The translations under genes and the position numbers were made by a program. A stretch of DNA of 64,000 bases from Acidobacteriota bacterium (GTDB lineage Bacteria > Acidobacteriota > Thermoanaerobaculia > Multivoradales > Multivoraceae): assembly GCA_039026915.1 (NCBI GenBank), contig JBCCLJ010000006.1, positions 5,000 to 68,999 of the forward strand. Direction: 5' to 3'. The notes beneath the pieces are model-generated. The model had not been told where the DNA came from. It did no database searches and was given only the letters and a program-made list of their open reading frames with translations. Shown here one piece after another: positions 26,870 to 64,000 of this stretch (positions are counted from its first letter, which is position 1; each line of letters starts with the position of its first letter).

Positions 26870-26937
26870 GTCGAAGCCCGCATTCGGCTGGCACGACGGC
26901 TGAGCGCACGGCCGACACTCTCGTCCTCAGTGCGTGC

Positions 26938-27969: not shown

Positions 27970-28059
27970 CGTCGGGTCTCGGAGAGCTCGGCAGCGCTCG
28001 GGTCGGGGTGGAACGCCCGCTCGGATTGGGGGCGGCTAGGCGGGTTGTACCACGGGGTC

Positions 28060-42347: not shown

Positions 42348-42919
42348 CGTTGACCCGGGAGGCCGGCGCCGAAGACGCCGTCGTAGTCGCAGTGCTCACG
42401 CAGGGCGGTTTCTTCGACGTCGATGCGCACTTTGAGAAGGGTGGCGTTGGCGATGCTGAAGAGCAGGGCGGTCGCCCAGGCGCCGTGCACCAGTGGCAGC
42501 GCCAGTATCTCGAGTACGACAGCGACGTAGTTCGGGTGTCGGAAGAACCGGTAGGGGCCCCGCCGCACGGCGGGCGCTCCGGGCTCGACGAGTACGCGGG
42601 TGTTCCAGCGATCGCCGAGACTCGAGATCGCCCAGTAGCGAAGTGCCATCGACAGCACGATGAAGCCGAGCGCCAGAGCACTCACACCTCGAATCGGACT
42701 CCGACCGAGCGCCACGACCTCGACGAAGCAGGACATCAGAAAGAGCGTGTGCAGCACGACCATGAAGCCGTAGTGACGCTGCCCGACTTCGAGGCCTCCG
42801 CGCGAGCGCACGCGTCGTGCGTTGCGCGTCGACAGGACGAGCTCCACAAGCCGCTCCACGCCGACCGCGGCCAGAAGCAGCAAGTAGAGCTGCACGCTCG
42901 TCGTCAGGGTCAAGTTCAA
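42344..42919 (-). CDS. Membrane ICMT-family (isoprenylcysteine carboxyl methyltransferase-like) methyltransferase
   Basis: 191 aa, about 5 TM segments, 'GPYRFFRHPNYVAVVLEILALPLVHGAW'. TTG start overlaps the PKS stop (TTGA). Confidence 0.85.
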   Translation of the reverse strand: MNLTLTTSVQLYLLLLAAVGVERLVELVLSTRNARRVRSRGGLEVGQRHYGFMVVLHTLFLMSCFVEVVALGRSPIRGVSALALGFIVLSMALRYWAISSLGDRWNTRVLVEPGAPAVRRGPYRFFRHPNYVAVVLEILALPLVHGAWATALLFSIANATLLKVRIDVEETALREHCDYDGVFGAGLPGQR

Positions 42920-43971
42920 AACCTCAAAAGCACCAGTTCCGAGCAGAATCCGGGGCCCATCGCCAGGAGCACGCCGAAGCTACCGGCGGGAGGTGGATCG
43001 GCGAGGGTTTCTTCGAGGACCATGAGCACCGACGTCGACGAGAGATTGCCCACTTCGCGCAGCCCCTTCCACGTGAGATCGAAGGCAGACTCGTCGACCT
43101 CGAGCGCTTCAGCCATTGCCTGAAGAACCTTGGGTCCACCCGGGTGGCAGATCCAAGTGCCGATGTCTCGGCGACGCAGTCCCTCTTCGGCGAGGAAGGC
43201 GTCGACGTCGGCGCGCAGGTGATCAGCCACCATCTGAGGCACCCGCGCGGAGAGGACGATCTCGAACCCGTTCTCACCGATGGTCCAACCCATGACGTCT
43301 TCGCTGTCGGGATAGAGCACGGAGCGGGTCGCGATGACTTCGGGGCCCGAGGAGAGGGCCGGTGCCGCCGAGCTGCCGCCGAGCACGACAGCGGCGGCGC
43401 CGTCACCGAAGAGGCCGGTGGCGATCAAATTCGGAATGGACAGATCCTCGCGCTGCACCGTCAGCGAGCAGAGCTCGACGGAGAGCAGAGCCGCGGTGTG
43501 CTCGGGGAAGGCGCGCACGTAGTCCGCGGCGCGTGCTACGCCGGCCGCGCCGGCGACGCAGCCGAGGCCGAAGATGGGCGTTCGCTTGACCGACGGGTTG
43601 AGACCCAGCCGATGTACGAGGCGAGCATCGAGCGAGGGTACGGCGAGGCCCGTCACCGAGACGAAGAAGAGCGCGTCGAGCGACTCTGGGGCGACGCCAG
43701 CCAGCGACAGAGCCTGCTCGAGCGCACGTCCGCCGACATCGATTCCCACGCGAATCCAAGCGTCGTTGGCGTCCCCGAAACCGCCGAGAGCATCGAACTC
43801 CTCGAGTGGCAGCGCCAGGTGGCGACCACCGACGAGCACGTTCTGATGCAGGCGACGAAGTCTCTCCGTGTTGAAGTGACGGTCTCCCCACTCCTGCTCC
43901 AGGCGACTCACGATCGTCTCCTGGTCGTAGAAGTTGTCGGGAAGCGCACTCGCCACGCTGCAGATCCGCAT
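42916..43971 (-). CDS. Type III polyketide synthase (chalcone/stilbene synthase superfamily)
   Basis: Cys-His-Asn triad contexts 'PIFGLGCVAGAAG', 'WICHPGGPKVL' and 'VGNLSSTSVLMVL', plus C-terminal 'LAMGPGF'. GGAG SD 9 nt upstream. Confidence 0.93.
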   Translation of the reverse strand: MRICSVASALPDNFYDQETIVSRLEQEWGDRHFNTERLRRLHQNVLVGGRHLALPLEEFDALGGFGDANDAWIRVGIDVGGRALEQALSLAGVAPESLDALFFVSVTGLAVPSLDARLVHRLGLNPSVKRTPIFGLGCVAGAAGVARAADYVRAFPEHTAALLSVELCSLTVQREDLSIPNLIATGLFGDGAAAVVLGGSSAAPALSSGPEVIATRSVLYPDSEDVMGWTIGENGFEIVLSARVPQMVADHLRADVDAFLAEEGLRRRDIGTWICHPGGPKVLQAMAEALEVDESAFDLTWKGLREVGNLSSTSVLMVLEETLADPPPAGSFGVLLAMGPGFCSELVLLRF

Positions 43972-43987
43972 CAGACGTTGCTCCGGT

Positions 43988-45055
43988 TCAAGGCGTGGCT
44001 CCCTGAGGAACTTCGATCGGAGTGTAAACGAGCTGGCCGACGACCGAGTCGCGCCCTGCCGGATCGCGCCCCGAAGAAAGCGGCGTCACCAGGCGACGGT
44101 CGAGTCCGGTGCCCGCGGGAAGCACGACGCCGGGTGCGACGAGGGAGTCCTTGAGTCGGCAGCCGGCCTCGAGACGAGCCCCCGGAAGCACTGCGCTCGT
44201 CTCGACCCGGCAGTCCTCTTCGAGGACGACCTCGTGCTCGATCACGGCACGTCGGATCTTGCTTCGCGCACCCAGAGTGGCTCGATCACTGATCCAGGAG
44301 CTGCGCAGGGGGCTCGCCCGGCCCGCCGTCTGCACCAGCGCCTGAAGGTAGCGCCAAGGCGTACCGAGATCGTGCCAGGGTCTCTTCGTACGCACGGCAC
44401 GCAGGTTCTCGCGGTCGTCGAGCAGGGGCTCGTAGAGCTCGCCGACGATGTCGGCCGGCTCGCTGCGGCCCGCGACGCGATCGAGCAGCCGAGGCGAGAG
44501 GACCTGGGCCCCGCCGAAGACGAGCTCGGAGCCCGCAACGCCGTCGCTGGGGAGGCGGCGGTCGTGCCTGAGCTGCAGCAGGCGTCCGTCCTTCGAGACG
44601 GCGACGTTGCCCCTGAAAGGAGCCCTCTCGGCGATCAGCAACGTCGCGATCGCATCGTGGCGGAGGTGCTCCTTGACCATCTTCGAGAGCGGCCATCGGC
44701 AGAGCGAGTCCGAGTTGATGAGGAGCGCGGCATCGCTGTCCGCCAGCTGCCGAGCAATCGGTCCCAACGCGCCAAGGGTGCCTAGAATCTCCTCTTCCTC
44801 GGAGTAGCGGATCTCCATGCCGTCGACGTCGGTACCGACCGCTTCGCGAACCTGCTCGCCGAGAAAGTGCAGGTTCAGAAAAGCGCTCTCGCAGCCGAGT
44901 CGAGCCAGCCCCTGGAGCGTGCGCACGACGGAGCTCTTCCCCAAAACGGGCAGAAGCGGCTTGGGGATCTGTTGAGTGAGAGGCCTCAGCCGCTGACCGA
45001 AGCCGGCCGAGAGCACCAGAGCTCGAAGCCTGTGCTGTCGCCGTCCCCAGGCCAC
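43988..45055 (-). CDS. Sugar-phosphate nucleotidyltransferase with C-terminal left-handed beta-helix region
   Basis: GTG 45055 lies 1 nt after the CYTH stop. 'LVLSAGFGQRLRPLTQQIPKPLLPVLG' NTP-transferase signature. The listed ORF extension to 45367 overlaps the CYTH gene. Confidence 0.83.
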   Translation of the reverse strand: MAWGRRQHRLRALVLSAGFGQRLRPLTQQIPKPLLPVLGKSSVVRTLQGLARLGCESAFLNLHFLGEQVREAVGTDVDGMEIRYSEEEEILGTLGALGPIARQLADSDAALLINSDSLCRWPLSKMVKEHLRHDAIATLLIAERAPFRGNVAVSKDGRLLQLRHDRRLPSDGVAGSELVFGGAQVLSPRLLDRVAGRSEPADIVGELYEPLLDDRENLRAVRTKRPWHDLGTPWRYLQALVQTAGRASPLRSSWISDRATLGARSKIRRAVIEHEVVLEEDCRVETSAVLPGARLEAGCRLKDSLVAPGVVLPAGTGLDRRLVTPLSSGRDPAGRDSVVGQLVYTPIEVPQGATP

Positions 45056-45056
45056 G

Positions 45057-45626
45057 TCAGAGCCGCTCCGTTGGATCTTCGCGAGCCGAAGGCGGGAAGA
45101 CCATGTCGACGCCGAGCGCCGGATTCGCCGCTCTCGCCTCGAGCCAGAGACCGACGTAGCTGAGGCGCTCGGGCTCGGCATCCGCGAGACCCAGGCCTTC
45201 CAGATGCTCGAGCGGTCTCTCCGCCTCGACTTCGACGAAGTCCCCGAGCGGCGTGTGATCGAGGGCCACGACGGCGCCGTCGAACCGCCACTGCTCGCGG
45301 TCCTTCTCGTAACGCAGGGTGGCGCGGAGACCGAGAGCCACAAGAATCTCCTCGAGCCGGTCCGCATCGCCGACGGAGGTCTCGAGCTCTGTCCGGCTCT
45401 TCACCTGCTGCTCGTAGACGGCGGGTCCCTTGAACGTCACCTTTGCTCCCTGTCCATCGCGGCGAACGCGCAGCACGCAGCCGTGCCCCCGCAGCTCCCC
45501 TTCGCGATCGAACAGCGTGTTGCTCTCGCGCGATTTCGGTTCGAGCAGTTCGGCTCCCGCCTCGATGAGGCGCGAGCGCACTGCGTCCAGATCCTCGACG
45601 CGCACTTTGACCTCGCGCTCGATCAA
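45057..45626 (-). CDS. CYTH-domain protein (CyaB-type class IV adenylyl cyclase / triphosphatase fold)
   Basis: 189 aa. N-terminal ExExK motif 'MIEREVKVRV'. Length is typical of CYTH. Confidence 0.82.
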   Translation of the reverse strand: MIEREVKVRVEDLDAVRSRLIEAGAELLEPKSRESNTLFDREGELRGHGCVLRVRRDGQGAKVTFKGPAVYEQQVKSRTELETSVGDADRLEEILVALGLRATLRYEKDREQWRFDGAVVALDHTPLGDFVEVEAERPLEHLEGLGLADAEPERLSYVGLWLEARAANPALGVDMVFPPSAREDPTERL

Positions 45627-48472: not shown

Positions 48473-51007
48473 CTATTCCTCGGAGTCGTCCGGAGCGTCG
48501 TCGCTGGGAGCCGTCTCTTCGCCGTCGTCCGGCTCTGAGACGCCCTCGTCTTCATCCTCATCCTCGTCGCGCTCGGGAATCCGAGCCGCCGCGACGATCC
48601 GATCGTCACCGTCGAGATCCATGATCTTGACGCCCTGGGTCGAGCGACCGATGCGCGACACCGAGGAGGACTCGATGCGGATGATCTTGCCTTCCTGCGT
48701 GATGATGACGATGCCGTCTTCGATGACCTCTTTGGCAGCGATGACCTCGCCCGTCTTGTCGCTGACTTTGAGGTTGATGATGCCCATGCCGCCGCGGCCT
48801 TGCCGTCGATACTCGTCGATCGCCGTGCGCTTGCCGAAGCCCTTCTCGGTCATGCTGAAGAGGTCGCCGCCGCGCTCCAGAGACTCCATGGAAACGACGC
48901 GGTCCCCGTCGCGAAGATTGATGCCGCGCACGCCCCGCGAGACCCGGCCCATCGGACGAACGTCGGTCTCAGGGAAGCGCACGGCGTAGCCCCGAGCGGT
49001 CGCCAGGACGACGTCGCGTTCACCGTCGGTTACGCGCACGGCGAGGAGACGGTCGTCTTCGTCGACGCGGGCCGCGATGATGCCGTCGGCCCTCGGTCGC
49101 GAAAACGCGGAGAGACTCGTCTTCTTGATGGTGCCGCCCTCGGTCGCGAAGATCAGGAAGAGGTCCTCCGGGAACTCGCGCACCGCAATCGTCGTGGCGA
49201 TGCGTTCGTCGGCGTCGAGGTTGAGCAGGTTGACGATCGCCTTGCCGCGCGCCGCCGGGCCCATCTCAGGGATGCCGTGCACCTTGATCCAGTACAGCTG
49301 GCCACGCTCGGTGACCGCCAGGATGTAGCTGTGTGCCGAGGCGACGAAGACATTTTCGACGAAGTCTTCTTCCTTCGTCTCCATGCCCTTGCGGCCTTTG
49401 CCACCGCGATTCTGGGCACGGTAGAGCGCCAGCGGCGAGCGTTTGATGTAACCGGAGTTGGTGACCGTAATCACCATGTCCTCGTCGGCGATCATGTCCT
49501 CGATGCTGATGTCGCCGCTGTGCTCGAGGATCTCGGTACGGCGCTCGTCCCCGTACTTGTCCTTGAGCTCGACCAGCTCGTCGCGAATCACCTCGAGCAC
49601 CAGCTCGTCGGAGTTGAGGATCGCGCGCAGACGCTCGATCGTCTGCATCAGCTCCTCGTACTCCTCGAGGATCTTCTCGCGCTCGAGCCCGGTCAGTCGC
49701 TGCAGGCGCATCTCGAGGATGGCCTGGGCCTGCGGCTCGGTGAAACCGAAGCCCTCCATCAGATTCGCGCGCGCTTCGGGAGGCGTTCGACTCGAGCGGA
49801 TCGTGGCGATGACCTCGTCGAGGTGATCGAGGGCCTTGAGCAGGCCTTCCAAAATGTGCGCCCGCTCTTCCGCCTTGCGCAGGTCGAAACGCGAGCGACG
49901 GATGATCACCGTCTTGCGATGGTTCAGAAAATGCGTCAGCAGCTCGCGCAGCTCGAGGGTTTGAGGCCGACCGTCGACGATCGCCAGCATGTTCATGCCG
50001 AACGAGACCTGCATCTGCGTCATCTTGTAGAGCGTGTTCAAGATGACTTCGGGCACCTCACCACGCTTCAGATCGACGACGACGCGAATGCCGTTGCGGT
50101 CCGATTCGTCGCGCAGGTCCGAGATGCCTTCGAGCTTCTTGTCGCGCACCAGCTCGGCGATCTTCTCGATGAGCCGCGCCTTGTTCACCTGGTAGGGAAT
50201 CTCGTCGACGATGATCGAGTGGCGATCGCCCTTGCGCTCTTCGAAGTGGGCCTTGGCGCGCACCTGAATCGTGCCGCGGCCGGTGGCGTACCCGGACCGG
50301 ATTCCCTGTGACCCGTGGATCGAGCCTCCCGTCGGAAAGTCGGGTCCAGGCAGCGACTCCATCAGGTCGAGCGAGGTGGCTTCCGGGTTCGCGATCAGCT
50401 GGAGCGTAGCGTCGATCACCTCGCTCAGATTGTGCGGAGGGATGTTCGTCGCCATGCCAACGGCGATGCCCGCAGAGCCGTTGACCAGGAGGTTCGGGAA
50501 GCGGGCAGGGAGCGGCATCGGCTCCGACTCGGAGCCGTCGTAGTTTTCGATCCAGTCGACGGTCTCTTTGTCGATGTCCTCGCGGAGCATCTCTTCCGCG
50601 ATCTTGGTCATGCGCACTTCGGTGTAGCGCATCGCTGCGGCGTTGTCGCCGTCGAGCGAGCCGAAGTTGCCCTGACCATCAACGAGCGGATAGCGCATCG
50701 AGAAGTCCTGCGCCATCCGCACGACCGTGTCGTAGATCGCCGAGTCGCCGTGAGGGTGGTACTTACCCATGACGTCACCGACGATTCGGGCCGACTTCTT
50801 GTAGGCACGGTTCGAGTAGTTGCCGGCCTCCCACATGCCGTAGAGCACGCGGCGATGCACGGGCTTGAGGCCGTCTCGCACGTCGGGAAGCGCACGCCCG
50901 ACGATGACGCTCATCGCGTAGTCGAGATAGCTCCGCTTCATCTCCTCTTCGAGATCGACTGGAATCGAACCGAGAGGCGGAAGGATCTCGTCGTCGTGCT
51001 CGCTCAT
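48473..51007 (-). CDS. gyrA: DNA gyrase subunit A
   Basis: 844 aa: '[12 protein letters not shown]', '[11 protein letters not shown]', active-site '[10 protein letters not shown]'. C-terminal beta-pinwheel repeats and an acidic tail. Confidence 0.98.
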
Positions 51008-51071
51008 CGGGTACTCCGAAACATCAAGAGAAACGCACCGGGCTCTGCGACCGGCGCGTCAGGGTCTCGAA

Positions 51072-53633
<2,562 letters not shown>

Positions 53634-53715
53634 CTAAGATTAGCACAGAGAGGCTCTCAGAACCAGCCTCACAGGCTCCGCTTGCAAGCGCCCGAAAGTA
53701 TTGATTTAACTGGGT

Positions 53716-54795
53716 TTATGGAGCTTCTACGCGGCCTGCGGCGACGGCCCACCGGCAGGCGATGGGCAGGTCCTCCCAGACCTCGGGTCGGTTGGAGCTC
53801 GCGAACACCTGATCGAGCTTGGAGAAGGCGCTCCAAACCCGGTAGAACGTGCGTCGATCGAGTTCGGTGTCGAGGTCGTCGAGCAGCAGCAGAGGCGGCC
53901 TTCCGGCCTGCTCGAGAAGCCGGCTCTGAGCGGCGAGGAGGCAGAGGCCGACGGCCTTGCGCTCCCCCGCCGAAGCGACCCGACCGACGGCGCGATCGCT
54001 CCAGAGGATCTCGATACGATCTCGGTGGGAGCCGAGAAGGCAGCGCTGGCGCGCGACTTCGTCCGCGGCCTTGGCACTCAGAGCCGCCAAGACGGCGTCG
54101 TAGCTCTCGAGAGCGACCCGGGGCGACGGGCGGTAGGAGACGCTCAGCTGTGGAAAACCAAGCTCGCACTCGGTCGCCACTTCGCCGAGAGCCGCCGACA
54201 GGCGCTCGCAGTGGCTGTGCCGCTCGCACGCCACGCGATGGATCGACTGCGCAAGCAGATCGTTCCAGCTCTCGAGATCCTGCGGCCGTCCGTGGCGGGA
54301 AGTCGACAGGAGGGAGCGCTTCTGACCGAGGACCTTGCGCAGTCGCTGGAGCGTTTCCAGGGCGGCGGGACGTTCGCCGACGACACCGCGATCGACGAAG
54401 CGGCGCCGCAGCTCGGGCTCGCCGGTGAGGACCTCGGTCTCGGCGCTGGTCCAAGCGAGGATCGGCTGAGCCGCAAGATGTTCCGACAGAGCGACCGTTT
54501 CGCCGTTGAGACGCCGCCAGAAGCCCTCAGAGCTCCATCCGACACCCAGTTGGCTGCGGGAGGACGTTTCGACCTCTGCGACGACGCTGAAGGCGCTCTC
54601 GCGGCCATCGCTGCGCAGGCAGTCTCGTAGCCGAGACGTGCGGAAGCTGCGCGTCGTGGTCGCCAGGTAGGCCGCTTCCAGGAGGGACGTCTTACCGCTG
54701 CCGGTGCCACCCAGCAGCAGGTTCGAGCCGGAGCCCGGTGCGAACGACTGCGTTTCCAGGTTGCGGAAGCCACTGACCTGCAGACCTCGAATCAC
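53716..54795 (-). CDS. recF: DNA replication and repair protein RecF
   Basis: 'LQVSGFRNL', Walker A 'GGTGSGKTSLLEA', Walker B 'LLLLDDLDTELD'. Position is between dnaN and gyrB. Confidence 0.92.
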   Translation of the reverse strand: MIRGLQVSGFRNLETQSFAPGSGSNLLLGGTGSGKTSLLEAAYLATTTRSFRTSRLRDCLRSDGRESAFSVVAEVETSSRSQLGVGWSSEGFWRRLNGETVALSEHLAAQPILAWTSAETEVLTGEPELRRRFVDRGVVGERPAALETLQRLRKVLGQKRSLLSTSRHGRPQDLESWNDLLAQSIHRVACERHSHCERLSAALGEVATECELGFPQLSVSYRPSPRVALESYDAVLAALSAKAADEVARQRCLLGSHRDRIEILWSDRAVGRVASAGERKAVGLCLLAAQSRLLEQAGRPPLLLLDDLDTELDRRTFYRVWSAFSKLDQVFASSNRPEVWEDLPIACRWAVAAGRVEAP

Positions 54796-54877
54796 GTCGG
54801 GCTCCGTGCCGCAGTCTCATCTGCCTCCCGACGCACCTGCGCCCGCCGAACGATCCGCTGCGGACGAGACGTCGCCG

Positions 54878-55978
54878 TCAGAGGCGCATCGGCATGATGA
54901 CGCAGAGGTACCGCTCGTCGTCCGATTCCTCGGCCGGAGCACCGATGCACTGGCTGTTCTCGTCCTTGAGCTTGAGGAGGACGTCGTCCGACTCGACCAC
55001 CGAAAGGAACTGGCCGAGGTAGTCCGGGTTGATCCCGAGCTCGAGGGTCGGACCCTCGTACTCGCACTCGATCTCCTCGACCGCCTCTCCGAGGTCGGGA
55101 TTCGCGGCAGAGACCACGAGCTGCTGATCCTCGAACGCCATACGCACGGCCCGAGCGCGGTCGCCCGTGAGCAGTGCAACGCGGCTGACGACCTCGCCGA
55201 GGCCCTTGCGCGGAAAGGAGACGACCTTGTCGTTGTCCTTGGAAATGACCTTCTCGTAGTCGGGGAAGGTGCCTTCGAGGATCCGGCAGATCAACTCCCT
55301 GCGACCGACGCCGAAGGAGAGATGATGCTCGCCTCGACGAAAGGTGACCGCATCGTCGCCGTCGAAGCGCTGCAGCTCCTGCAGCGCCTTGCGCGGCACC
55401 AGAACCCCTTCACTCTCCTCCACGCCCGCCACCGGCGTCTCGACGAGGGCCAGGCGATGACCGTCCGTGGCCACCATCTCCAGAGAGCCGGACTTCGGCT
55501 TGAGCAGAGCACCGTTCAGCTGGAAGCGTGACTCTTCAGCCGAAACGGCGAAGAAGATCTTGCTGATCATCTTGCGGAAGTCGCCGTGGGGCAGCTCGAT
55601 CTGAGCTCCTTCGCCGACCTCGGGAAGCGTCGGGAAGTCGTCCGAGGAGAGGCCGCGAATCTTGAAGCGCGACTTGCCGGAGGTGATGCGAAGACCGTGG
55701 TTGTCCTCTTCCACGAGATGGACTTCGTCTCCAACCATGGCGCGCACGATCTCGAGGAACTTCCGCGCCTGAACAGCGACTGCGCCTTCGCGATCCGTCG
55801 CGGCGTCGCACCACGACGTCAACGAGACGTCGAGATCGGTGGCTGCGATGTGGAGCTTGCCGTCTTTCGCCTTGAGGAGAATGTGCGAAAGCACCGGGAT
55901 CGTCGACTTACGCTCGACGATGCCCTGCATGGGGGCGAGCTCGGTCAGAAGCTCTGCGCGATTGATACGGATTTCCAT
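54878..55978 (-). CDS. dnaN: DNA polymerase III beta sliding clamp
   Basis: 366 aa: 'RAELLTELAPMQGIVERKSTIPVLSHILL' and 'ATDGHRLA'. Lies immediately downstream of dnaA. Confidence 0.95.
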   Translation of the reverse strand: MEIRINRAELLTELAPMQGIVERKSTIPVLSHILLKAKDGKLHIAATDLDVSLTSWCDAATDREGAVAVQARKFLEIVRAMVGDEVHLVEEDNHGLRITSGKSRFKIRGLSSDDFPTLPEVGEGAQIELPHGDFRKMISKIFFAVSAEESRFQLNGALLKPKSGSLEMVATDGHRLALVETPVAGVEESEGVLVPRKALQELQRFDGDDAVTFRRGEHHLSFGVGRRELICRILEGTFPDYEKVISKDNDKVVSFPRKGLGEVVSRVALLTGDRARAVRMAFEDQQLVVSAANPDLGEAVEEIECEYEGPTLELGINPDYLGQFLSVVESDDVLLKLKDENSQCIGAPAEESDDERYLCVIMPMRL

Positions 55979-56304
55979 AGAGGCGCTCTGGTCCTAAGAA
56001 GTCTGAAAGGAATATAACTAATCTACAGTCGTAGTCATAGGTGCTGTGGAGTCTTCGGAGGAATCCTTCAACACCTTTGTTGACAGGGGTTTGAACTCAC
56101 CCGAGCCTGCGGATTGCGGTGTGGATCGACGGCGCTTTTTCTGCGGAGATTCGGTGATTCTCGCCGACTGTGGAAGTTCTTGAGGGTTTTCCACCGCGTT
56201 GTCCGCAGGGTCGGCTCGCAGCGTCGGAACGGCGTGCTGCAGACAGGCGGCAGCGACGGCGCGCTGCGCCGTTGCCCAATGCATCGCGCTCGACCGGATC
56301 GAGC
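55979..56304. other. Candidate chromosomal replication origin (oriC) in the dnaA-dnaN spacer
   Basis: A ~33% GC stretch (55994-56040) in a ~67% GC background. Five DnaA-box-like 9-mers: TGTGGAGTC 56045-53, TGTGGATCG 56120-28, TGTGGAAGT 56169-77, TTTTCCACC 56187-95, TTGTCCGCA 56199-207. Flanked by the canonical dnaA-dnaN-recF-gyrBA context. Confidence 0.5.
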
Positions 56305-57591
56305 TCAGCAGAGCTCGGTCTCGAGGCGCTGCAGGGTCCGATCGAGATCGCCGTCGCCCTGCCGCAACGTCTCGATCTTGTCGACCGAGTACATCACCGT
56401 CGAGTGATGCTTGTCGTTGAAGTGCTTGCCGATCTCGGGGTACGAGAGGTCGGTGAGGCGCTTGCAGAGGAACATTGCGACCTGGCGCGGAAAAGCGATC
56501 TGCTTCGAATTGTTCTTGCTCTTGATCTCGCCGACCTTGAGACCGTAGTGGTGCGCCACCTTCTTGATGATCTCGGGCGCACCGAGCTTCTGCTCCTCGG
56601 GCGGAAGGATGTCGCGCAGCGTCTCGCGGGCCATCTCGAGATCCAACTCTCTTCCGGTCATCGACGAGAACGCAGCGACGCGGTTCAGCATGCCTTCGAG
56701 CTCGCGCACGTTGGATTTCACCTGTTGGGCGATGAACTCGGCGACGGCCGGAGGCAGGTGAACGCCGAAGGTCTCGGCCTTGCGCCGCAGGATGGCCACC
56801 TTGGTCTCGAGGTCGGGCGACTGGATGTCCGCGATCAGCCCCCATTCGAAGCGGCTTCGCAGTCTCTCTTCCAGAGTCGGAATGTTCTTCGGCGAGGCGT
56901 CCGACGACAGGATGATCTGTTTCTGCGACGTGTAGAGCGTATTGAAGGTGTGGAAAAACTCCTCCTGGGTTCGCTCTTTGTTCGCTAGGAACTGGATGTC
57001 GTCGATGAGAAGAACGTCGATCGTGCGATAGCGATCGCGAAAGTCGACCATGCGCTCGTAGCGGATCGAGTTGATCAGTTCGTTGACGAACTGTTCCGCC
57101 GAGAGGTAGCGAACCTTGGCGCTCGGCTCCCGCTCTTCGATCTCCTGAGCGATCGCGTGCAGCAGGTGCGTTTTGCCGAGACCGACACCGCCGTAGAGAA
57201 AGAGCGGGTTGTAGCTCTGTCCGGGACTCTCGGCGACGGCTCGCGCTGCGGCGTAGGCGAACTGGTTCGAGTTGCCGACGACGAACGAGTCGAAGCGATA
57301 GCGCGGATTGAAAGTGCGCTTTCCCTTCGCCTCGGGCTCGCCTGGTGTGGCGTCATCGACGGAAAAGAGCACTTCGAACTCGCCGCCGCGCAGGCCGGCG
57401 ATCGCTCGATCGACCACCGTACGGTAGCTTTCTTCGAGCGTGTTCAGGAAGCGCCGATTGGGTGCCGTGAGGACGAGTTTCTGGGACTCCTCCGAGCGCA
57501 CTCGGAGAGGCTTGAACCAAGTTTGGAACTCGTCCGCCGGAATCGACTCCTGCAGCTCTTTCTGAAGATTAAACCAAAGAGAGTCAGCCAT
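56305..57591 (-). CDS. dnaA: Chromosomal replication initiator DnaA
   Basis: ATG 57591: 'MADSLWFNLQKELQESIPADEFQTWFKPL'. Walker A 'GGVGLGKTHLLHAI', 'LLIDDIQFLANKERTQEEFFHTFN'. DNA-binding C-terminus 'IAFPRQVAMFLCKRLTDLSYPEIGKHFNDKHHSTVMYS'. The listed ORF start at 57660 adds a non-DnaA-like extension. Confidence 0.95.
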   Translation of the reverse strand: MADSLWFNLQKELQESIPADEFQTWFKPLRVRSEESQKLVLTAPNRRFLNTLEESYRTVVDRAIAGLRGGEFEVLFSVDDATPGEPEAKGKRTFNPRYRFDSFVVGNSNQFAYAAARAVAESPGQSYNPLFLYGGVGLGKTHLLHAIAQEIEEREPSAKVRYLSAEQFVNELINSIRYERMVDFRDRYRTIDVLLIDDIQFLANKERTQEEFFHTFNTLYTSQKQIILSSDASPKNIPTLEERLRSRFEWGLIADIQSPDLETKVAILRRKAETFGVHLPPAVAEFIAQQVKSNVRELEGMLNRVAAFSSMTGRELDLEMARETLRDILPPEEQKLGAPEIIKKVAHHYGLKVGEIKSKNNSKQIAFPRQVAMFLCKRLTDLSYPEIGKHFNDKHHSTVMYSVDKIETLRQGDGDLDRTLQRLETELC

Positions 57592-57612
57592 TTGGAAGCA
57601 GGAAGGGGCAAT

Positions 57613-57644
57613 CGCTCCACAAGTTTTCCGCAACCTGCGGAAAA
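57613..57644. promoter_or_regulatory. Three adjacent DnaA-box-like 9-mers, including a perfect inverted pair, upstream of dnaA
   Basis: CGCTCCACA (57613-21), then TTTTCCGCA (57624-32) - ACC - TGCGGAAAA (57636-44). The last two form a perfect 9-nt inverted repeat, 33-53 nt upstream of the dnaA ATG. Confidence 0.45.
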
Positions 57645-57803
57645 GCGGAGACCGCGTCAAAATCAGTTAGGAAGGCCCGGCGAGAAGAGACGGGAGCATA
57701 CCAATCCGCTCGTTCGCGGAGCAAGGAAAAAGTGGTCCGGTGAAGGCGCGCTTCGGACTAAGCTGCGTCGCTCCATGAAGTTAGCGTCAAGAAAAAGTTT
57801 CGA

Positions 57804-58916
57804 GTGATGAACGACCCACAGAGGCGGCTGCGCGAGGACCTTCTGGACTGGTTCGACGCCAACCACCGCACGCTGCCGTGGCGTGGCTCGCGAGACCCCT
57901 ACCGGATTCTGCTGTCCGAGGTGATGAGTCAGCAGACGCGGATTCTGGTGGTCGTCGACTACTTTCATCGCTTCCTCGATCGCTTCCCGAACGTGGAGGC
58001 GCTTGCCGCGGCCGAGGAGTCCGAGGTCCTGGCTCTCTGGTCGGGTCTCGGCTACTACCAGCGCGCTCGACGACTGCACGCTGCGGCGCGCGAGGTGGTC
58101 TCGAGGGGTGGCTTTCCGACCTCGTTCGAGGGACTCAAGTCCTTGCCTGGCATCGGTGACTACACCGCTGCAGCGGTGGGCAGTATCGCGTTCGACGTCG
58201 TCGAGCCCGTGCTCGATGGCAACGTGGAGAGAGTCCTCACGCGGTGGCTGCGACTGGGAGGCGATCCCAAGCGCGTCGCGGTGCGTCGTCGCCTCCGCGA
58301 GACCGCTGCGACCCTGCTCGACGCGCAGCGCCCCGGCGACAGCAATCAAGCGATGATGGAGCTCGGCGCGACGATCTGCACGCCGCGCTCCCCGCGCTGC
58401 GGCGACTGTCCGCTCGCAGAGAGCTGCCGGGCCTTCCGCGACGGTGTGCCGACGGAGTACCCCGAGTCGAAGCCGAAGAACGTCACCAAGGTCCTCGAAG
58501 TCTGGATCGCCGTCGTCGTCCAGCGTGACGACCGCCTGCTCCTCGCGCGGCGCTCCGCAGAGTCGGAGGTCTTGGCCGGCGCCTGGATGGTTCCGAGTGT
58601 GCGCCTGAGCTCGGAAGAGTTCAAGAAGGGCCGACGAGCTCGATGGACTTGGCGGGCTGACGGAGTGGCTCGGAATCTGACACGGTCGTTCGGCGGTCGC
58701 TGGAGCGTCGATCGTCCCGTGGCTCAGGTGAAGCACGGCATCACCTTTCGCTCTCTCGAGGTGCACTGCTCACGCGCCCGGGTGGATCGCCTGCCGCGGC
58801 GCGACGATCTCGTCTGGGTGACGCCGCCCGAGCTCGAGGCGCTGCACACCTCTTCGCTCGTCGCCAAGATCCTCTCGGCTCAGTCGTCGTCGCTCGACTT
58901 GGGAGCGGAGCTCTGA
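57804..58916 (+). CDS. mutY: A/G-specific adenine DNA glycosylase MutY
   Basis: 'LPWRGSRDPYRILLSEVMSQQTR', HhH-GPD 'LPGIGDYTAAAV', 4Fe-4S 'CTPRSPRCGDCPLAESC'. NUDIX-like C-terminal domain. Confidence 0.92.
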   Translation: MMNDPQRRLREDLLDWFDANHRTLPWRGSRDPYRILLSEVMSQQTRILVVVDYFHRFLDRFPNVEALAAAEESEVLALWSGLGYYQRARRLHAAAREVVSRGGFPTSFEGLKSLPGIGDYTAAAVGSIAFDVVEPVLDGNVERVLTRWLRLGGDPKRVAVRRRLRETAATLLDAQRPGDSNQAMMELGATICTPRSPRCGDCPLAESCRAFRDGVPTEYPESKPKNVTKVLEVWIAVVVQRDDRLLLARRSAESEVLAGAWMVPSVRLSSEEFKKGRRARWTWRADGVARNLTRSFGGRWSVDRPVAQVKHGITFRSLEVHCSRARVDRLPRRDDLVWVTPPELEALHTSSLVAKILSAQSSSLDLGAEL

Positions 58917-59941
58917 TGCGGTAGCCCCTCTCGGTGACTGCCACCAGAGAGGATGTACCAACCGATGATCTTCTCGTTCGTCTCACGAAGGCGTTTGGCG
59001 AGCAGCTTCGTCATGACCTTGAGCAGTCGGATGGACGAGGCGCGGTCGATGTCGAGAATCTTCGAGAGAACCTCGCGTCGGATCGAAAGCAGCAGGGCAC
59101 CTCCCGCATCGGCGGCCGCATCGGCGGATCGCGGGAGATCGTCGATCAGCGACATCTCACCGAAGAACTCGCCGCGTCCGAGGAAGGCCATGGCTTCCTC
59201 GCCGGCTCCGGGGATGATCTTGCTGATCATGATGCGCCCTTCGACCACCACGTACATGCGATCACCGTCGTCTCCGTCGGCAAAGACGAGCTGACCGGGG
59301 CGGAAGCGACGCGCCTCGCAGAGCGAGCCGAGGTAGTTGACCTCCATATTGGAGAGTCCCTGCTCGCGGAAGACGGCGCGCTTGTCTTCGATGTCGATCT
59401 TGGTGTCCTCGACCGATTCGGCCATGGCTCGTGGAGCGTCGTTGGCGGCGGTCTCGTCGATGAAGAACCGGCTGAGATTGTTGTTCGTCTGACGCAGCTT
59501 CGCGGAGAGGCTCTTCCACAGCGTCCAGGTGAAGGCGACTTCGAAGGCCGGGTCTTCCGCGCACAGCTGTTCGAGACGCACCGGGTTGAGAACCAGGAGA
59601 TCGCAGGGTGCCAGAGTGAGCGCGTCGACCGACCTCGTATCGCCGTCGACGAAGTTCATCTCACCGAAGAGCTGGCCCGGCGTGAGCCGTGTGACTTCAA
59701 AGCTGCCGTACGAGGTCTGGCGCTGCAGACTGACCTCCCCCGACTCCACGACGAACGCCTCTCGCGTCGTTTCGCGCTCCTGGATCACCACCGCGCCCTC
59801 GGGATACTGATGTCGGAAGGCGCAACCACGCAGCTGCTCGAGCTGCGCATCCGAGAAGTGCTTGAAGTGGGGTAGCTGGCGAAGGGCTTCGAGCATGGAA
59901 GTGACCGTCGAGAGTCGGTTGGGTCGACGGGCCGCCTCCAT
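58880..59941 (-). CDS. Protein with two tandem cyclic-nucleotide-binding (CAP_ED) domains and no recognisable output domain
   Basis: Two copies of the cNMP cassette: 'GQLFGEMNFVDGDTRSVDALT' and 'GEFFGEMSLIDDLPRSADAAA'. No HTH seen. An alternative start is 59896. The 3' end overlaps mutY convergently by 37 nt. Confidence 0.83.
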   Translation of the reverse strand: MEAARRPNRLSTVTSMLEALRQLPHFKHFSDAQLEQLRGCAFRHQYPEGAVVIQERETTREAFVVESGEVSLQRQTSYGSFEVTRLTPGQLFGEMNFVDGDTRSVDALTLAPCDLLVLNPVRLEQLCAEDPAFEVAFTWTLWKSLSAKLRQTNNNLSRFFIDETAANDAPRAMAESVEDTKIDIEDKRAVFREQGLSNMEVNYLGSLCEARRFRPGQLVFADGDDGDRMYVVVEGRIMISKIIPGAGEEAMAFLGRGEFFGEMSLIDDLPRSADAAADAGGALLLSIRREVLSKILDIDRASSIRLLKVMTKLLAKRLRETNEKIIGWYILSGGSHREGLPHQSSAPKSSDDD

Positions 59942-60186
59942 TCTGGCTCATGCACGCCCGTCGAGCGAATCACTCCGTGCGGCATTCGTCCTGGGGTCTC
60001 GTCAAACGACGCGAAACACGCGCAATTTCCCTGGAATGAGCAGCTTGTGGCTGCTGACCGAAGTGTCGAGCCTGACGTACACTGCGTCGGTACGGACGAG
60101 AAAAAAGAGACCACTCCTTGAACCCTGCCAACGCGAGCGGCGGCACACACGGAGGCCGTGACCACCGTCGTCGGCCTCGCGTCGTA

Positions 60187-63100
60187 ATGCTGCTGGCCAA
60201 TCCGTTCACCCACGACACGCGCGTCAACAAGCAGGCGCGCGCCCTGGTGACTTGGGCGTGCGACGTCACGATCGTCGCCCGCGATGGGAAAGAACTGCCG
60301 GCGTTCGAGACCCGGGATCAGATCGACATCGAGCGCGTGCCGTTTGCCGAGGCGTCGCTGGTCGACTCGTTTCGGTTGCTGAACCTGGTCGCCGTCGGTG
60401 CGCAGGACCGAGTCGCCCGGATCCTCGGCTCGCAAGAACCCGCACGCCTCAAAGAGCGGCCTTTGCTCCGCTCTCGACTCTCCTGGGTCGGCCTACCGTC
60501 GCTGCTGGTGGTCTTCTTCTTCGGAGCGCTGGTGGCTCTGGCCCAGGGCTCGTTCCGTCTCTTGCGAGCGCTGATGCGCGGCGGTGTCGCAGCCATGCGT
60601 GCCGTGGGACGGGCTTTCCTCGACGGCTTCCGTCTGGCGGCGCGCCTGCCGGGGACCCTCGTCCGATCAGCATTCCGAGGCGGGCTGGTCCTCCTTCGGG
60701 GAACGAGGTCGATCGCAGCTCTCTTCGTTCACGGTGTGGCCGCGGTGGCGCGTTTCGCCGGTCGCGCAGCTTCCGTCGCTCTGCCGTCGGCGGTCTACCA
60801 GCCTCTGGCCAAACGACTCTTCGCCTCTGCTCGTACGCTGCGCAACGCCGTGCGGTGGCGTTGGAATCGCTTCGAGCAGTTCTTTCGCGGCCGGGCCCGG
60901 GTCGGTGCGGGCGGCGCTCGTTCAGGAACGTCGCGGTTTCAGCGATTCGTCCAGTCTCTTCGTCGCTCGCTCGAGCGGCGCAGGGTGCTGCTGCGCAGTC
61001 GTTGGATTCGATGGTCGACTCCGAAGAAGCGAGCCGTGAACCGTCGCAAGACGCTGCTTCGGTCGGCAGCGAGGAAGCGGGTTCGTGCCCTCCTCCCGGC
61101 TCAAGCGCCGATCCTCGCCATGAACCTGCCGTTCGCCCGTCACGCGCTCCGCTACGAGCCGGAGATCGTCGTGGCACACGATCTCAACACGCTGCTGGCG
61201 GGCCTGGCTCTGAAAGAAACTCTCGGGTGCAAGCTCGTCTACGACTCTCATGAGCTGTATCTCGAACGCAACATCGGCGACCGCAACCGCTTCAAGGAAA
61301 ACCTCTTCTGGACGCCGCTCGAGCGCATGGCGATTGGTCAATGCGACGCCGTGCTCTCCGTTGCGGACGGCATCTGCAAGCACCTCGGCGATCTCTACCG
61401 CATTGAGAAGCCGCACCTGATCCGCAACGTTCAGCCGTACGAGCCGCCGGCCTTTCGGAGTGATCTGCTGGCCCAGTCCCTCGGAGTGTCCCCCTCTCTC
61501 CCCCTGGGTATCTATGCGGGAGCGATCACGATCAACCGCGGTATCGAACAGCTCATCGAAGCTGCGCGCTACCTGGAAGACGCGGCCTTCGTCGTCATGG
61601 GCTACGCGCTCAACCCGGCTTTCCTCGAAGGGCTCCAACAGCAGGCTCGGGACGCAGGTGTTCTGGGAAAGACGCTCTTCTTTCACGACGCCGTGCCGAT
61701 GGACCGCGTTGTCGAGTACGTCTCTTCCGCGAAGCTGAGCGTCGTGCCGACGAGGAACGTCTGCCTCAGTTACTACTTCGAGGCGAGTAACAAGATCTTC
61801 CACAGCCTGATGGCGGGTGTCCCCGTTGCCATGAGTGACCATCCGGAGAAGCGGTTGCTCGTCGAAGAGCACGACGTCGGGGTTCTCTTCGACGAGAACG
61901 ATCCGAAGGCGATCGCCGGAGCGGTTCAGGGCCTCCTGGCGGACGATGCGAGCTACGCCCGGAAGCGACAGAACTGTCTCGACGCCGCGCGCAGCCTCAA
62001 CTGGGAGAACGAGGAGTTCAAGCTGAGAAAGGTCTACGCAGGCCTCCTCGGAGATCGCGCGCCGCGGGTGCCTCCCGCGACACTGCCCTCGACGGAACTC
62101 GAAGCACAGCGGCCCGGTCGACGGCAGCGCCGTCGTTCCGGCGGCTTGAACCCTAGCTATGTCGATTACCTCGAGCATTTTGGACGCACCGTGACTCTGG
62201 CCGAGCTGCACGACTCCGACGAGCCGGGAATCGGCCTTCGGCATGACGTCGACCACGATCTCGACGCCGCGCTGGACATGGCCTACGTCGAGCAGCGCCG
62301 AGGCTGTCGGGCAACGTACTTTCTCCTGCACACGGCACCGTACTGGGAGGATCCTCGCTTCGAGTCCAAGTGCCGCCAGCTCCTCGACTACGGACACGAG
62401 ATCGGTCTGCATGTCGACGTCTTCTCGGAGCTCGCGGAGAATCCCGATTTCGAGCCTCGGGCGCGACTCGAAGAGTTGATCGATCGGCTGCGCGGCTTCG
62501 GGGCCACGGTCCGAGGAGTTGCAGCGCACGGCTCCCCGCAGTGCTACGAGCTCGGGTTCATCAACCACTGGTTCTGGGAGGAACTGCGCGGCGACCATCC
62601 GGAGCAGACGGAGAGCGTGCTCAACGCCGAGGGCATCTCCGCCGTCGATCCGAATTACCGGGTTCCCTATCCGCTCTCCGGCTCCGTCGAGGTCGCGGAG
62701 GGTAAAAGGGTCCATCTCTGGTCCGTCTCCATGTCGTCTCTCGGAGTCAGCTACGAGGCGGCCAGGATCCCCGTCGACGAGTACTGGACCGACACCGGCG
62801 GCGATTGGAAGCGAAGCGGAGATCCTCTCGAAGCGGATCTGACGCGAGGAAGGCACCAGGTTCTCTTTCATCCGGTCTGGTGGAGAGGCACGGCCCGAAA
62901 GATCTTCGTTCTGTCGACGGCGCGCTCGGGGAGCAAGTGGCTCACCGCAGCCATCGATCGCGCGACATCGGCTCGAGCAGTTCATGAGTGGACGCTGAAT
63001 CATCACGAGAGAGACGGCGTCGTCGAGCAGGACAAACGCACGACGGTCTTTCAGGATCTTCTGGATCAACGGCCTCTGGCGTTGGCTCGTCTGAGAGAAG

Positions 63101-64000
63101 GTCTGCGCCTTCAGCGAGCTCAGGGCGGAACCGTGGTCGAAGCCAACGTCTATCTTCCGTTCTTTCTCGACGAGCTTCTGCAGATGGAGAACGAAGCGGA
63201 GATCGTGCACCTCTACCGAGACGGGAGGGAGGTCGTTCGCTCTCTCGTGGAGCGTGGCTGGTACTCGACGCCCGACGATCGAAATCACCCGAGAATCGAC
63301 ACCGCACACTGGGAGTCACTCGGCCAGGTCGAGCGCTGCGCGGCTTACATCCGTTGGGTCCATGAGGAGATCGCACCCCGAGCGACGGCCCGTCTGCAGT
63401 TCGAGCGCATGATCCAAGACGCTGACTATCTCGCGAGGGTCCTCGAGGATCTCGGTCTCTTCGTGCACCGCCGGCTGTTGGACGAGGAGTTCGGTGAGGT
63501 CTTGGATTCGACCGGCCGCTGGACCGTACCCCCGTTCGATGAATGGCGCCCGTCGCTGCAGCGCGAGTTCTTCGACACTTGCGGTCCCGCGCAGCGAGCG
63601 CTCGGCTACTTCTCGGAGGACTCGGGCGAGTTGGCTCTCCGCCCGGCGTTGTCCGAACCGCTCGAGAGTCGGCAGGTACTTTCTCTCGAGACCTTCGACT
63701 GGAGCCGTTGCGGCGGGCGCGGCGTCGCCGTGACCGAAGCCGAGAGCGGTGTCGAGTTCGCACTCGAAGGACCGAGCGGCCCGCGCCACCAGATGCTCGC
63801 GCCGGGAGGCTGGCACAACGTGGCGCGCGAGGAAGGCCTCGAGCTGGAGCCAGGCTACTACTACGTTGGTCGCATGCTCGGGGCGGTCCGTGACGGCGAT
63901 TCGGTGCGTGTCTTCGCCCTCTTCTACGACGAGGAGGGGTCTCTGGTCCGTCGCACGCTCGTGCATACCTGGCGCTCGGAAGCGACAGCGGCCTTCTTCT
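60187..64000 (+). CDS. Partial (3'-open) giant multidomain protein: GT4 glycosyltransferase with large basic insertion - CE4/NodB-like deacetylase - sulfotransferase - unknown C-terminal region
   Basis: Hand translation of frame 1 gives no stop from TGA 60073-75 to 64000. It is not in the ORF track because it is unterminated. Candidate starts are ATG 60187 and in-frame TTG 60118 after AAGAGA. Motifs, in order:
- GT4: 'MLLANPFTHDTRVNKQARALV', 'EIVVAHDLNTLLAG...KLVYDSHELYLE', 'YYFEASNKIFHSLMAGVPV'.
- CE4-like: 'GLRHDVDHD' (62236-62259), 'GHEIGLH', 'VLFHPVWW'.
- Sulfotransferase: 5'-PSB 'KIFVLSTARSGSKWL' (~62897-62941) and 3'-PB 'IVHLYRDGREVVRSL' (~63201-63245). Confidence 0.85.
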   Translation, partial: MLLANPFTHDTRVNKQARALVTWACDVTIVARDGKELPAFETRDQIDIERVPFAEASLVDSFRLLNLVAVGAQDRVARILGSQEPARLKERPLLRSRLSWVGLPSLLVVFFFGALVALAQGSFRLLRALMRGGVAAMRAVGRAFLDGFRLAARLPGTLVRSAFRGGLVLLRGTRSIAALFVHGVAAVARFAGRAASVALPSAVYQPLAKRLFASARTLRNAVRWRWNRFEQFFRGRARVGAGGARSGTSRFQRFVQSLRRSLERRRVLLRSRWIRWSTPKKRAVNRRKTLLRSAARKRVRALLPAQAPILAMNLPFARHALRYEPEIVVAHDLNTLLAGLALKETLGCKLVYDSHELYLERNIGDRNRFKENLFWTPLERMAIGQCDAVLSVADGICKHLGDLYRIEKPHLIRNVQPYEPPAFRSDLLAQSLGVSPSLPLGIYAGAITINRGIEQLIEAARYLEDAAFVVMGYALNPAFLEGLQQQARDAGVLGKTLFFHDAVPMDRVVEYVSSAKLSVVPTRNVCLSYYFEASNKIFHSLMAGVPVAMSDHPEKRLLVEEHDVGVLFDENDPKAIAGAVQGLLADDASYARKRQNCLDAARSLNWENEEFKLRKVYAGLLGDRAPRVPPATLPSTELEAQRPGRRQRRRSGGLNPSYVDYLEHFGRTVTLAELHDSDEPGIGLRHDVDHDLDAALDMAYVEQRRGCRATYFLLHTAPYWEDPRFESKCRQLLDYGHEIGLHVDVFSELAENPDFEPRARLEELIDRLRGFGATVRGVAAHGSPQCYELGFINHWFWEELRGDHPEQTESVLNAEGISAVDPNYRVPYPLSGSVEVAEGKRVHLWSVSMSSLGVSYEAARIPVDEYWTDTGGDWKRSGDPLEADLTRGRHQVLFHPVWWRGTARKIFVLSTARSGSKWLTAAIDRATSARAVHEWTLNHHERDGVVEQDKRTTVFQDLLDQRPLALARLREGLRLQRAQGGTVVEANVYLPFFLDELLQMENEAEIVHLYRDGREVVRSLVERGWYSTPDDRNHPRIDTAHWESLGQVERCAAYIRWVHEEIAPRATARLQFERMIQDADYLARVLEDLGLFVHRRLLDEEFGEVLDSTGRWTVPPFDEWRPSLQREFFDTCGPAQRALGYFSEDSGELALRPALSEPLESRQVLSLETFDWSRCGGRGVAVTEAESGVEFALEGPSGPRHQMLAPGGWHNVAREEGLELEPGYYYVGRMLGAVRDGDSVRVFALFYDEEGSLVRRTLVHTWRSEATAAFF

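Follow-up and report, generated by a model that had tools for sequence, protein, structure and literature searches.

In the animal N-deacetylase/N-sulfotransferase NDST1, the deacetylase domain is of the (beta/alpha)7 type, has a metal site made up of Asp, His and His, and is followed by a sulfotransferase domain (PMC10864358). Here we describe a gene at the 3' end of a 64,000-nucleotide stretch of an Acidobacteriota genome (assembly GCA_039026915.1, contig JBCCLJ010000006.1; the whole stretch is henceforth called the window). Its product, P0001, resembles animal NDST in that a barrel domain of the metal-dependent deacetylase type stands directly before a sulfotransferase that uses PAPS (3'-phosphoadenosine 5'-phosphosulfate), and in having an accessory glycan-binding domain (PMC10864358). 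By analogy, the two-step chemistry proposed for P0001 would be the same as that of the animal enzyme. Differences are, however, evident. P0001 is bacterial and presumably cytoplasmic, and it has an extra glycosyltransferase of family GT4 and a C-terminal module that resembles a carbohydrate-binding module (CBM). Furthermore, its sulfotransferase domain (ST) is of the Sulfotransfer_3/TPST type and not of the NST type, and its putative metal motif reads H-x4-H plus HDVD, while NDST has D319-D320 and H389-x3-H393.

Stepwise schemes of this kind are familiar from other pathways. In the MshA/MshB, BshA/BshB and PIG-A/PIG-L pairs, a GT4 enzyme transfers N-acetylglucosamine and a deacetylation then frees the amine for modification; the Nod-factor route employs the glycosyltransferase NodC, the CE4 deacetylase NodB and the sulfotransferase NodH. 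As in the bacterial cytoplasmic pathways among these, the scheme proposed for P0001 couples a glycosyltransferase to a de-N-acetylase, with a further modification to follow. In the systems mentioned, however, the activities reside in separate proteins, and the deacetylases belong to other families (LmbE/PIG-L or canonical NodB). In addition, NodH O-sulfates a different residue, and none of the four is an N-sulfation system.

N-sulfated exopolymers resembling glycosaminoglycans (GAGs) have been reported in bacteria of the Planctomycetes-Verrucomicrobia-Chlamydiae (PVC) group and in granular sludge, their enzymes being unassigned (passages of PMC7356697; PMC10483923). Passages of a 2020 paper present GAG sulfotransferases as not known in prokaryotes (PMC7356697), and a 2023 paper considers bacterial routes to sulfated GAG-like polymers not well known (PMC10483923). 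Heparin bioengineering is hampered because no NDST is at hand that functions in bacteria, and papers from 2024 to 2026 engineer artificial CE4-NST fusions for want of one that can be expressed in them (PMC13353177, PMC11069525). Judging from the abstract of PMC8205485 and from the abstract and searched passages of PMC7356697, the synechan xss cluster and a putative sulfated-GAG cluster of Pontiella are similar to the locus described here in combining GT4/GT2 genes with several Sulfotransfer_1/3 genes; a fusion between a deacetylase-like domain and a sulfotransferase is not mentioned in those abstracts and passages. No description of a combined GT4, barrel and sulfotransferase was found in the literature searched. 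The component types are known; what is described here is a domain family without annotation, and a module of three activities that has been conserved.

Domain architecture of P0001

Frame 1 of the plus strand contains a TGA at 60073-75 and is then free of stops from 60076 to 64000 (1,308 sense codons by translation of 60073-64000). From the ATG at 60187 to the window end, 1,271 codons were counted, in agreement with the original prediction of an open frame of more than 1,270; the seven peptide motifs quoted in that prediction were all found at the expected places. The whole product is publicly recorded as P0001, with 1,350 amino acids and an annotated start at TTG 60118, 23 codons 5' of ATG 60187, which is an alternative start. 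The open-ended reading frame of this four-domain protein occupies 60118..64000 (+) in the window, and the public record extends it to its stop codon, with 56 codons and the stop lying past the window end.

Homology places the opening strand-helix units of the N-terminal Rossmann domain of GT4 (MLLANPFTHDTRV...) at 60187..60342 (+). The product of this segment is 57% identical to the N-terminus of a separate GT4 gene in a related locus, L005, and tblastn recovered the same piece in at least 20 loci. After about 52 residues, the Rossmann domain is interrupted by an insert of about 240 amino acids (60343..61056, +), recognized by its composition and Kyte-Doolittle profile: it is high in Arg, Ala and Leu (18% Arg) and holds a strongly hydrophobic 19-mer, VGLPSLLVVFFFGALVALA (60487-60543; Kyte-Doolittle 2.44). 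The insert is common to orthologous GT4s of 700-745 amino acids, and its role, as judged from composition, is presumed to be membrane association.

The GT4 catalytic core lies at 61066..61974 (+), with Glyco_transf_4 at 61066-61428 (E 1.1e-9) and Glycos_transf_1 at 61504-61974 (E 1.2e-12). Pfam scores exceed the gathering cutoffs (38.9 bits against 28.5 for PF13439, 48.1 against 26.4 for PF00534 and 47.5 against 27 for PF13692), and the assignment to GT-B/GT4 made in the original prediction is upheld. The closest solved relatives are retaining GT-B enzymes, namely the sucrose-phosphate synthase Tll1590, GlgM, MshA and GlgA. At the E-x7-E site the sequence reads FEASNKIFHSLMAGVPV, where the first Glu is kept and the second position is His; a subfamily signature, NK-x-F-[EH], is found at this site in relatives too.

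The second domain, which we call MID, is encoded at 62146..62889 (+) and is predicted to be a CE4-like (beta/alpha) barrel on the grounds of AlphaFold2 (AF2) modelling, Foldseek searches and conservation. Its homologues number 429 in a 90%-clustered collection, most of them stand-alone 'hypothetical proteins' of about 255 amino acids, and MID stands for a large protein family for which neither Pfam nor NCBIfam offers a model. Conservation analysis and the AF2 model were based on an alignment, A1, of 117 diverse members of the family. Twelve columns of A1 are invariant, including H62, D63, D65, H118 and H157, while H91, H113, D245 and H271 are nearly invariant. In P0001 numbering, the conserved residues are H709, D710 and D712 (HDVD), H738, H760 and H765 (HEIGLH), H804 (AAHG), D892 and H918 (FHPVWW).

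In the MID model (predicted local distance difference test, pLDDT, 90.9; predicted template modelling score, pTM, 0.86), successive strands carry the conserved His and Asp residues at their C-terminal ends, as expected of the active site of a barrel. When the model was compared with the PDB using Foldseek, matches 1 to 10 were all CE4 structures (chitin, peptidoglycan and chito-oligosaccharide deacetylases, and acetylxylan esterase). The likeness to the CE4/NodB deacetylases (PF01522; NodB, PgdA, PdaC, chitin deacetylases, ArnD), which provide the best, though weak, structural matches, lies in an apparently related barrel fold and extends to the layout: an Asp motif after strand 1, 'ATYF' in strand 2, 'GHExGxH' in strand 3 and, beyond the last strand, a His. 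The LFH of MID is also compatible with CE4 motif MT5 (LxH). Our reading of the model is that MID may be a very divergent relative of the CE4/metal-dependent deacetylase barrel with re-drawn motifs, HDVD, HEIGLH, AAHG and FHPxWW.

MID ends with WWRG, and strand 1 of the sulfotransferase domain (KIFVLS) begins 6 residues further on. The PAPS-dependent ST (Sulfotransfer_3, PF13469) is encoded at 62896..63609 (+) and was identified by Pfam, motifs and Foldseek. The 5'-phosphosulfate-binding loop (5'-PSB), STARSGSKWL (62914-62943), comes straight after strand 1, and the 3'-phosphate-binding motif (3'-PB), YRDGREVVRS, is found at 63214-63243; S[TP]ARSGSKWL and HL[HY]RDxxxVVRS are conserved in most of about 115 relatives. 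Sulfotransfer_3 scores 29.7 bits (cutoff 27) for the domain alone and 23.6 bits in the context of the whole protein. A precomputed PF13469 match exists in several orthologues, one of which is named sulfotransferase by NCBI. An AF2 model of ST together with the C-terminal module (CT) reached a pLDDT of 83.5, and the best Foldseek matches for ST were TPST1 and TPST2 (E 1e-6 to 1e-4, probability 1.00, TMt about 0.5); a profile search of the PDB gave a marginal TPST match (E 0.55). The two motifs, the Pfam score of the isolated domain and the TPST-like fold bear out the original assignment as a PAPS-type sulfotransferase.

The remainder of the window (63610..64000, +) encodes most of a C-terminal beta-sandwich, cut by the window end, that AF2 and Foldseek depict as a CBM-like jelly-roll. 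The original prediction had noted at least 160 unassigned, beta-rich residues; the beta-rich tail is real, and it can now be described as a CBM-like sandwich of 186 amino acids, with pLDDT of about 85-95 over the sandwich. Foldseek matches include CBM22, CBM16, CBM15, CBM4, CBM6, CBM61 and a porphyran-binding CBM (E 6.5e-6 to 2e-4, TMt 0.46-0.60), and no sequence-family match was found for the module. Judging from the modelled fold, it presumably binds glycan. A phmmer search of the PDB with the C-terminal 647 amino acids gave no match, and in NCBIfam neither MID nor ST-CT, nor the stand-alone MID proteins, nor the three unknown proteins encoded downstream, have a model.

The MID-ST family and its GT4 partner

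An exhaustive HMMER search with MID, ST and CT yielded 2,234 representative proteins at E <= 1e-3, 130 of them at E <= 1e-30, and architectures were mapped on the 279 proteins retrieved until then. MID-ST was found in 62 and MID-ST-CT in 40, and many were stand-alone MID proteins; the arrangement GT-MID-ST-CT occurred once, in the protein of the window itself. A few proteins of about 990 amino acids (P0143, P0145 and P0151) show the order MID-ST-CT-MID, with a second barrel at the C-terminal side.

Among GTDB representative genomes, MID-ST is found mostly in Planctomycetota (Phycisphaerales, Anaerohalosphaeraceae, Ca. Brocadia). Other hosts are Coleofasciculus, Acidobacteriota, Chromatiaceae (including the cultured Halochromatium glycolicum DSM 11080), Thermodesulfovibrionia, Thermoleophilaceae, deltaproteobacteria and a Woesearchaeota bin. 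The pairing of a deacetylase-like domain with a sulfotransferase is not rare and turns out to be that of a widespread uncharacterised family with more than 100 clusters in many phyla.

The four domains of the window protein were compared by tblastn with the fetched loci, 34 of which were non-redundant and had enough upstream sequence. In 26 of the 34, a GT4 orthologue (33-61% identity) lies immediately upstream of the MID-containing gene, on the same strand. It is a separate gene in all 26, which according to their record names represent several phyla. An overlap is usual at the junction: in loci of the Phycisphaerales type, the GT4 gene ends with a TGA that shares bases with the ATG start codon of the MID gene, which gives ATGA. 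The GT4 of L005 is 52% identical to the GT part of the window protein, insert included. Gene order and overlaps in these loci show that GT4 and MID-ST form an evolutionarily conserved and, as far as such overlaps indicate, translationally coupled pair. The three-part architecture is special in one respect only: the fusion to GT4 is seen in the species of the window, whereas the MID-ST unit is widespread and is usually a separate gene beside GT4.

Partial loss of the sulfotransferase is also seen. At L006:10208-12118, L007:10097-11902, L036 and L037, MID is kept (45-53% identity), with either the ST motifs or the whole ST lost. The genes in question could encode pseudo-sulfotransferases or carry a different tail.

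Proposed reaction sequence and its alternatives

We propose that P0001 is a cytoplasmic, membrane-associated enzyme that tailors a glycan in several steps, with deacetylation followed by sulfation according to an NDST-like logic; we give this proposal about as much credence as doubt. That the sulfation would be N-sulfation specifically is a more tentative point, and we lean to the doubtful side of it. In the proposed sequence, the GT4 domain would add an N-acetyl-hexosamine, the presumed donor sugar, to a membrane-bound and probably lipid-linked acceptor; the barrel domain would take off the N-acetyl group; and the sulfotransferase would move the sulfate of PAPS onto the freed amine. The CBM-like module would grip the glycan, and the basic and hydrophobic insert would anchor the enzyme to the membrane. 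As nucleotide sugars and PAPS are found in the cytoplasm, all domains would work at the cytoplasmic face of the membrane. The spacing of about 6 residues between barrel and ST argues for sequential action on one substrate, as does the fact that the catalytic-type residues of both domains are conserved throughout the family.

The likeness to NDST resides in the architecture, a barrel just N-terminal of a sulfotransferase on one chain. This part of the original prediction stands; homology is not detectable, and N-sulfation is what we infer. Neither Pfam, nor sequence searches of the PDB, nor the top 50 fold matches returned HSNSD/NDST, and P0001 appears to have acquired its domains by a route separate from that of NDST.

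Several observations weigh against the proposal, and those that concern the barrel come first. MID in isolation has no Pfam match even at E <= 10 and no NCBIfam match. It stays below every hidden Markov model (HMM) threshold and does not reach the PF01522 gathering score; PF01522 is touched weakly by 3 of the 117 family members (best E 0.007). Matches at the level of the fold are weak too: the best one, 2vyo (E 1.6e-4, TM 0.39/0.51), is the only one among the top ten Foldseek matches with E <= 1e-3, and a profile search of the PDB gave a marginal match with the chitin deacetylase 2y8u (E 0.21) over 'RATYFvL...GHEvGfH'. Besides, MID has HDVD in place of TFDD, HEIGLH (H-x4-H) in place of H[ST]xxH and AAHG in place of RxPY, as well as an insert of about 70 residues (170-240) that sets it apart from CE4; its acidic and His residues are conserved, though outside the canonical CE4 pattern. 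No similarity specific to ArnD was found. From the 'NodB/CE4, ArnD-like' module of the original prediction, a weak likeness to the CE4 fold is retained, as the ten Foldseek matches indicate; the HMM match expected of such a module is missing from Pfam and NCBIfam, its motifs are altered and the ArnD component finds no support. In our reading, MID falls outside CE4 in its present definition, nor is it specifically ArnD-like.

Other points against the proposal go beyond the barrel. The AF2 models are separate, MID and ST-CT having each been modelled alone. No PAPS-supply or export genes were found within 10 kb downstream on the contig of a sister assembly described below. In some GT4-linked relatives (L006, L007, L036 and L037, the latter an Isosphaeraceae locus whose GT4-linked MID gene lacks ST), ST is degenerate or absent beside the same GT4, so that the role of the barrel does not hinge on sulfation. 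Finally, ST is nearest to tyrosylprotein sulfotransferases, and the NST domain of NDST does not appear in the best 50 of 130 Foldseek matches (E <= 0.001); with TPST as closest fold and no NST match, the fold does not discriminate between N- and O-sulfation.

The latter observation leads to an alternative explanation, which we regard as unlikely but deserving of attention: the barrel might remove an O-acyl or other blocking group or trim the glycan, and the sulfotransferase might O-sulfate a hydroxyl, without any NDST-like N-sulfation. TPST, the closest fold, is an O-sulfotransferase, and some enzymes with a CE4-type fold are O-acetyl esterases, one of them being an acetylxylan esterase (2cc0) found among the matches. 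Furthermore, most characterised bacterial glycan sulfotransferases are O-sulfotransferases (NodH, Stf0). The tight fusion between barrel and ST is, however, simplest to understand if both work on the same atom, and the operon already has a stand-alone sulfotransferase.

A second alternative is that the barrel is non-catalytic, either a scaffold that binds glycan or lipid or a pseudo-enzyme that presents the substrate to GT4 and the sulfotransferase. The canonical CE4 motifs are indeed not intact, and a CE4 pseudo-enzyme, 6hm9, is among the top matches; the best match, 2vyo, is a CE4 family member. Against this view, which we find quite improbable, stand the invariant columns of A1, to which the near-invariant H113 and H271 can be added, the placement of all conserved residues at strand C-termini, typical of a barrel active site, and the abundance of stand-alone versions of 255 amino acids.

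Returning to deacetylation followed by sulfation, an attractive if tentative extension, possible rather than probable in our view, is that the MID-ST(-CBM) family is a natural prokaryotic N-deacetylase/N-sulfotransferase, independent of animal NDST, that builds N-sulfo-hexosamine glycans with its cognate GT4. If so, the family would explain the N-sulfated GAG-like exopolymers of PVC bacteria and of anammox and granular sludges, and would provide the engineering of heparin with an NDST that can be expressed in bacteria; P0001 would be a one-chain machine to 'add, deacetylate, N-sulfate'. Genetically locked to a specific GT4, the MID-ST family is a concrete candidate for the enzymes of bacterial sulfated or N-sulfated glycans, and P0001 can be viewed as the 'Rosetta-stone' fusion that links the three activities to one pathway.

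The fusion, its operon and the rest of the window

The 90% cluster of P0001 contains one other protein, P0280, encoded on a 125-kb contig (JBCDJB010000001.1) of assembly GCA_038748275.1. P0280 also has 1,350 amino acids, 1345 of which are the same as in P0001. At the DNA level, comparison of the two assemblies over 13,883 bases (window 50118-64000) gave 99.65% identity, with 48 substitutions and 0 gaps, and the order gyrA, gyrB, recF, dnaN, dnaA, mutY and a gene for a cyclic nucleotide (cNMP)-binding protein is common to the window and the sister contig. Since the sister assembly encodes the same product with no indel, the fusion is not a random assembly error.

The junction consists of a non-conserved, Pro/Arg-rich linker (APRVPPATLPSTELEAQRPGRRQRRRSGG) with pLDDT below 60, followed by TTGA at 62146-62149 (junction 62059..62149, +). 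TTGA occupies the site of the ATGA stop/start overlap of the relatives, with TTG in the frame of the ORF and TGA in the +1 frame, and the GT part enters it in the ORF frame through its non-conserved tail. The simplest explanation of the fusion is that the frame changed in the GT tail and that ATG became TTG; the fusion is fixed in the species of the window.

An artefact of assembly or sequencing, with a true locus made of two genes (GT4 and MID-ST-CBM) as in relatives, would account for the absence of fusions from the other 26 loci; with TTGA at the position of the relatives' ATGA, a single indel in the non-conserved tail of about 60 nt would suffice to join the frames. Other apparent fusions lie on long-read contigs of low coverage. 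One is P0206 (L057, GT-MID-ST), on a contig with 1.77x coverage, where the GT is broken by an overlapping ORF; the other is P0002 (L058), in which GT4 is joined to a barrel paralogue of the 304-amino-acid type (see below), at 5x coverage. Both were rejected as independent fusions and are probably frameshift artefacts. For P0001, however, an artefact is very improbable: the junction is identical in an independent assembly (GCA_038748275.1) that has diverged by 48 substitutions in 13.9 kb with no indel, and the downstream part starts with TTG, not with ATG. P0001 is the only credible single-chain form of the three-activity module.

The reading frame itself has the composition of coding DNA (G+C at codon positions 1/2/3 of 0.70/0.46/0.77, in a genome with 66% G+C), and its 15 differences from the sister sequence are 10 synonymous and 5 non-synonymous. 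The ORF finder lists two antisense ORFs, 60922..63309 and 63316..63966, and omits the open-ended sense ORF because it reports closed ORFs only; the composition of the antisense frame (GC1 0.76, GC3 0.69) is the mirror of the sense frame, as the original prediction had it in calling these ORFs shadows. That the antisense ORF of 795 amino acids (60922..63309), long and closed as it is, might be the true gene deserves virtually no credence, since 6 of the 7 differences in its span and frame alter the amino acid (1 is synonymous), its GC1 > GC3 is that of a codon-position shadow, and it is for the sense frame that homologues are known in their hundreds and that four domains fold. With the same frame in a second assembly, free of stops and frameshifts, P0001 is confirmed as a real single gene.

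Genes downstream of the fusion were read from the sister contig (L056). There, the P0280 gene overlaps (GTGA) a gene for a GT4 of 408 amino acids, which is followed by those for a 284-amino-acid sulfotransferase (Sulfotransfer_1/3, E about 1e-17), a 394-amino-acid GT4 and a 304-amino-acid protein. The latter (L056:17343-18257, about 3.3 kb past the window end) has no Pfam or NCBIfam match and shows the same order of motifs as MID (QHDVD...GYHQN...PHGG...HPQRW). It is 47-67% identical across at least 9 distinct related loci, some of which have two copies, and its motifs indicate that it is a paralogue of MID and a second unannotated barrel family in these clusters. Related loci add sulfotransferases, methyltransferases and a Bac_transf initiating transferase, as well as a WbpB/D/E-like set for di-N-acetylated sugars (GFO oxidoreductase, DegT aminotransferase and hexapeptide acetyltransferase). 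With two further GT4s, a second sulfotransferase and a barrel paralogue downstream, the locus is, by its predicted gene content, a sulfated-glycan biosynthesis operon whose first gene is the fusion.

Two other genes of the sister contig lie on the minus strand. One (L056:18263-19819) encodes a multi-pass membrane protein of 518 amino acids that is present in 6 related loci, and the other (L056:19822-21765) a 647-amino-acid, asparagine-synthetase-like protein with an SGGRDS PP-loop; neither has a Pfam match. Both genes adjoin one for an Orn/DAP decarboxylase, and Asn_synthase genes are found in the L005 cluster too.

Upstream of the fusion gene lies the region of the chromosomal origin and not a glycan cluster. 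Genes gyrA, gyrB, recF, dnaN and dnaA stand in a row, followed by mutY (+) and a gene for a protein with two cNMP-binding domains (-), the whole replication-origin neighbourhood covering 48473-57660 (-). G+C falls to about 0.60 at 55.5-57.5 kb, in the same neighbourhood, and the origin region shows no enrichment of DnaA boxes of the E. coli type (2 matches, where 1.7 were expected).

Elsewhere in the window, an ABC-transporter ATPase of the Wzt type with a Wzt_C glycan-binding domain (16140-17651, -) and a 751-amino-acid protein with a Kdo/WaaP-like kinase domain (18708-20963, -) are encoded. The genes at 16140-20963 are a possible glycan export route, about 40 kb away from the fusion gene. 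Rod-shape machinery (rodA of the FtsW/RodA type, PBP2, mreC and mreB) is encoded next to RNase G at 22530-28035 (-); the relatives of this genome bear the names Phycisphaerales/Planctomycetota, and our reading is of a planctomycete of the Phycisphaerales type. A type III polyketide synthase gene (42916-44085, -) is located between those of an AMP-binding enzyme (40366-42135) and an NTP-transferase/LbH protein (43988-45400). At 7688-9835 (+), an ORF of 715 amino acids has coding-type composition and no Pfam match; it is followed by a tRNA-Met (CAT) gene at 9966-10039, the sole Rfam/ARAGORN match in the window.

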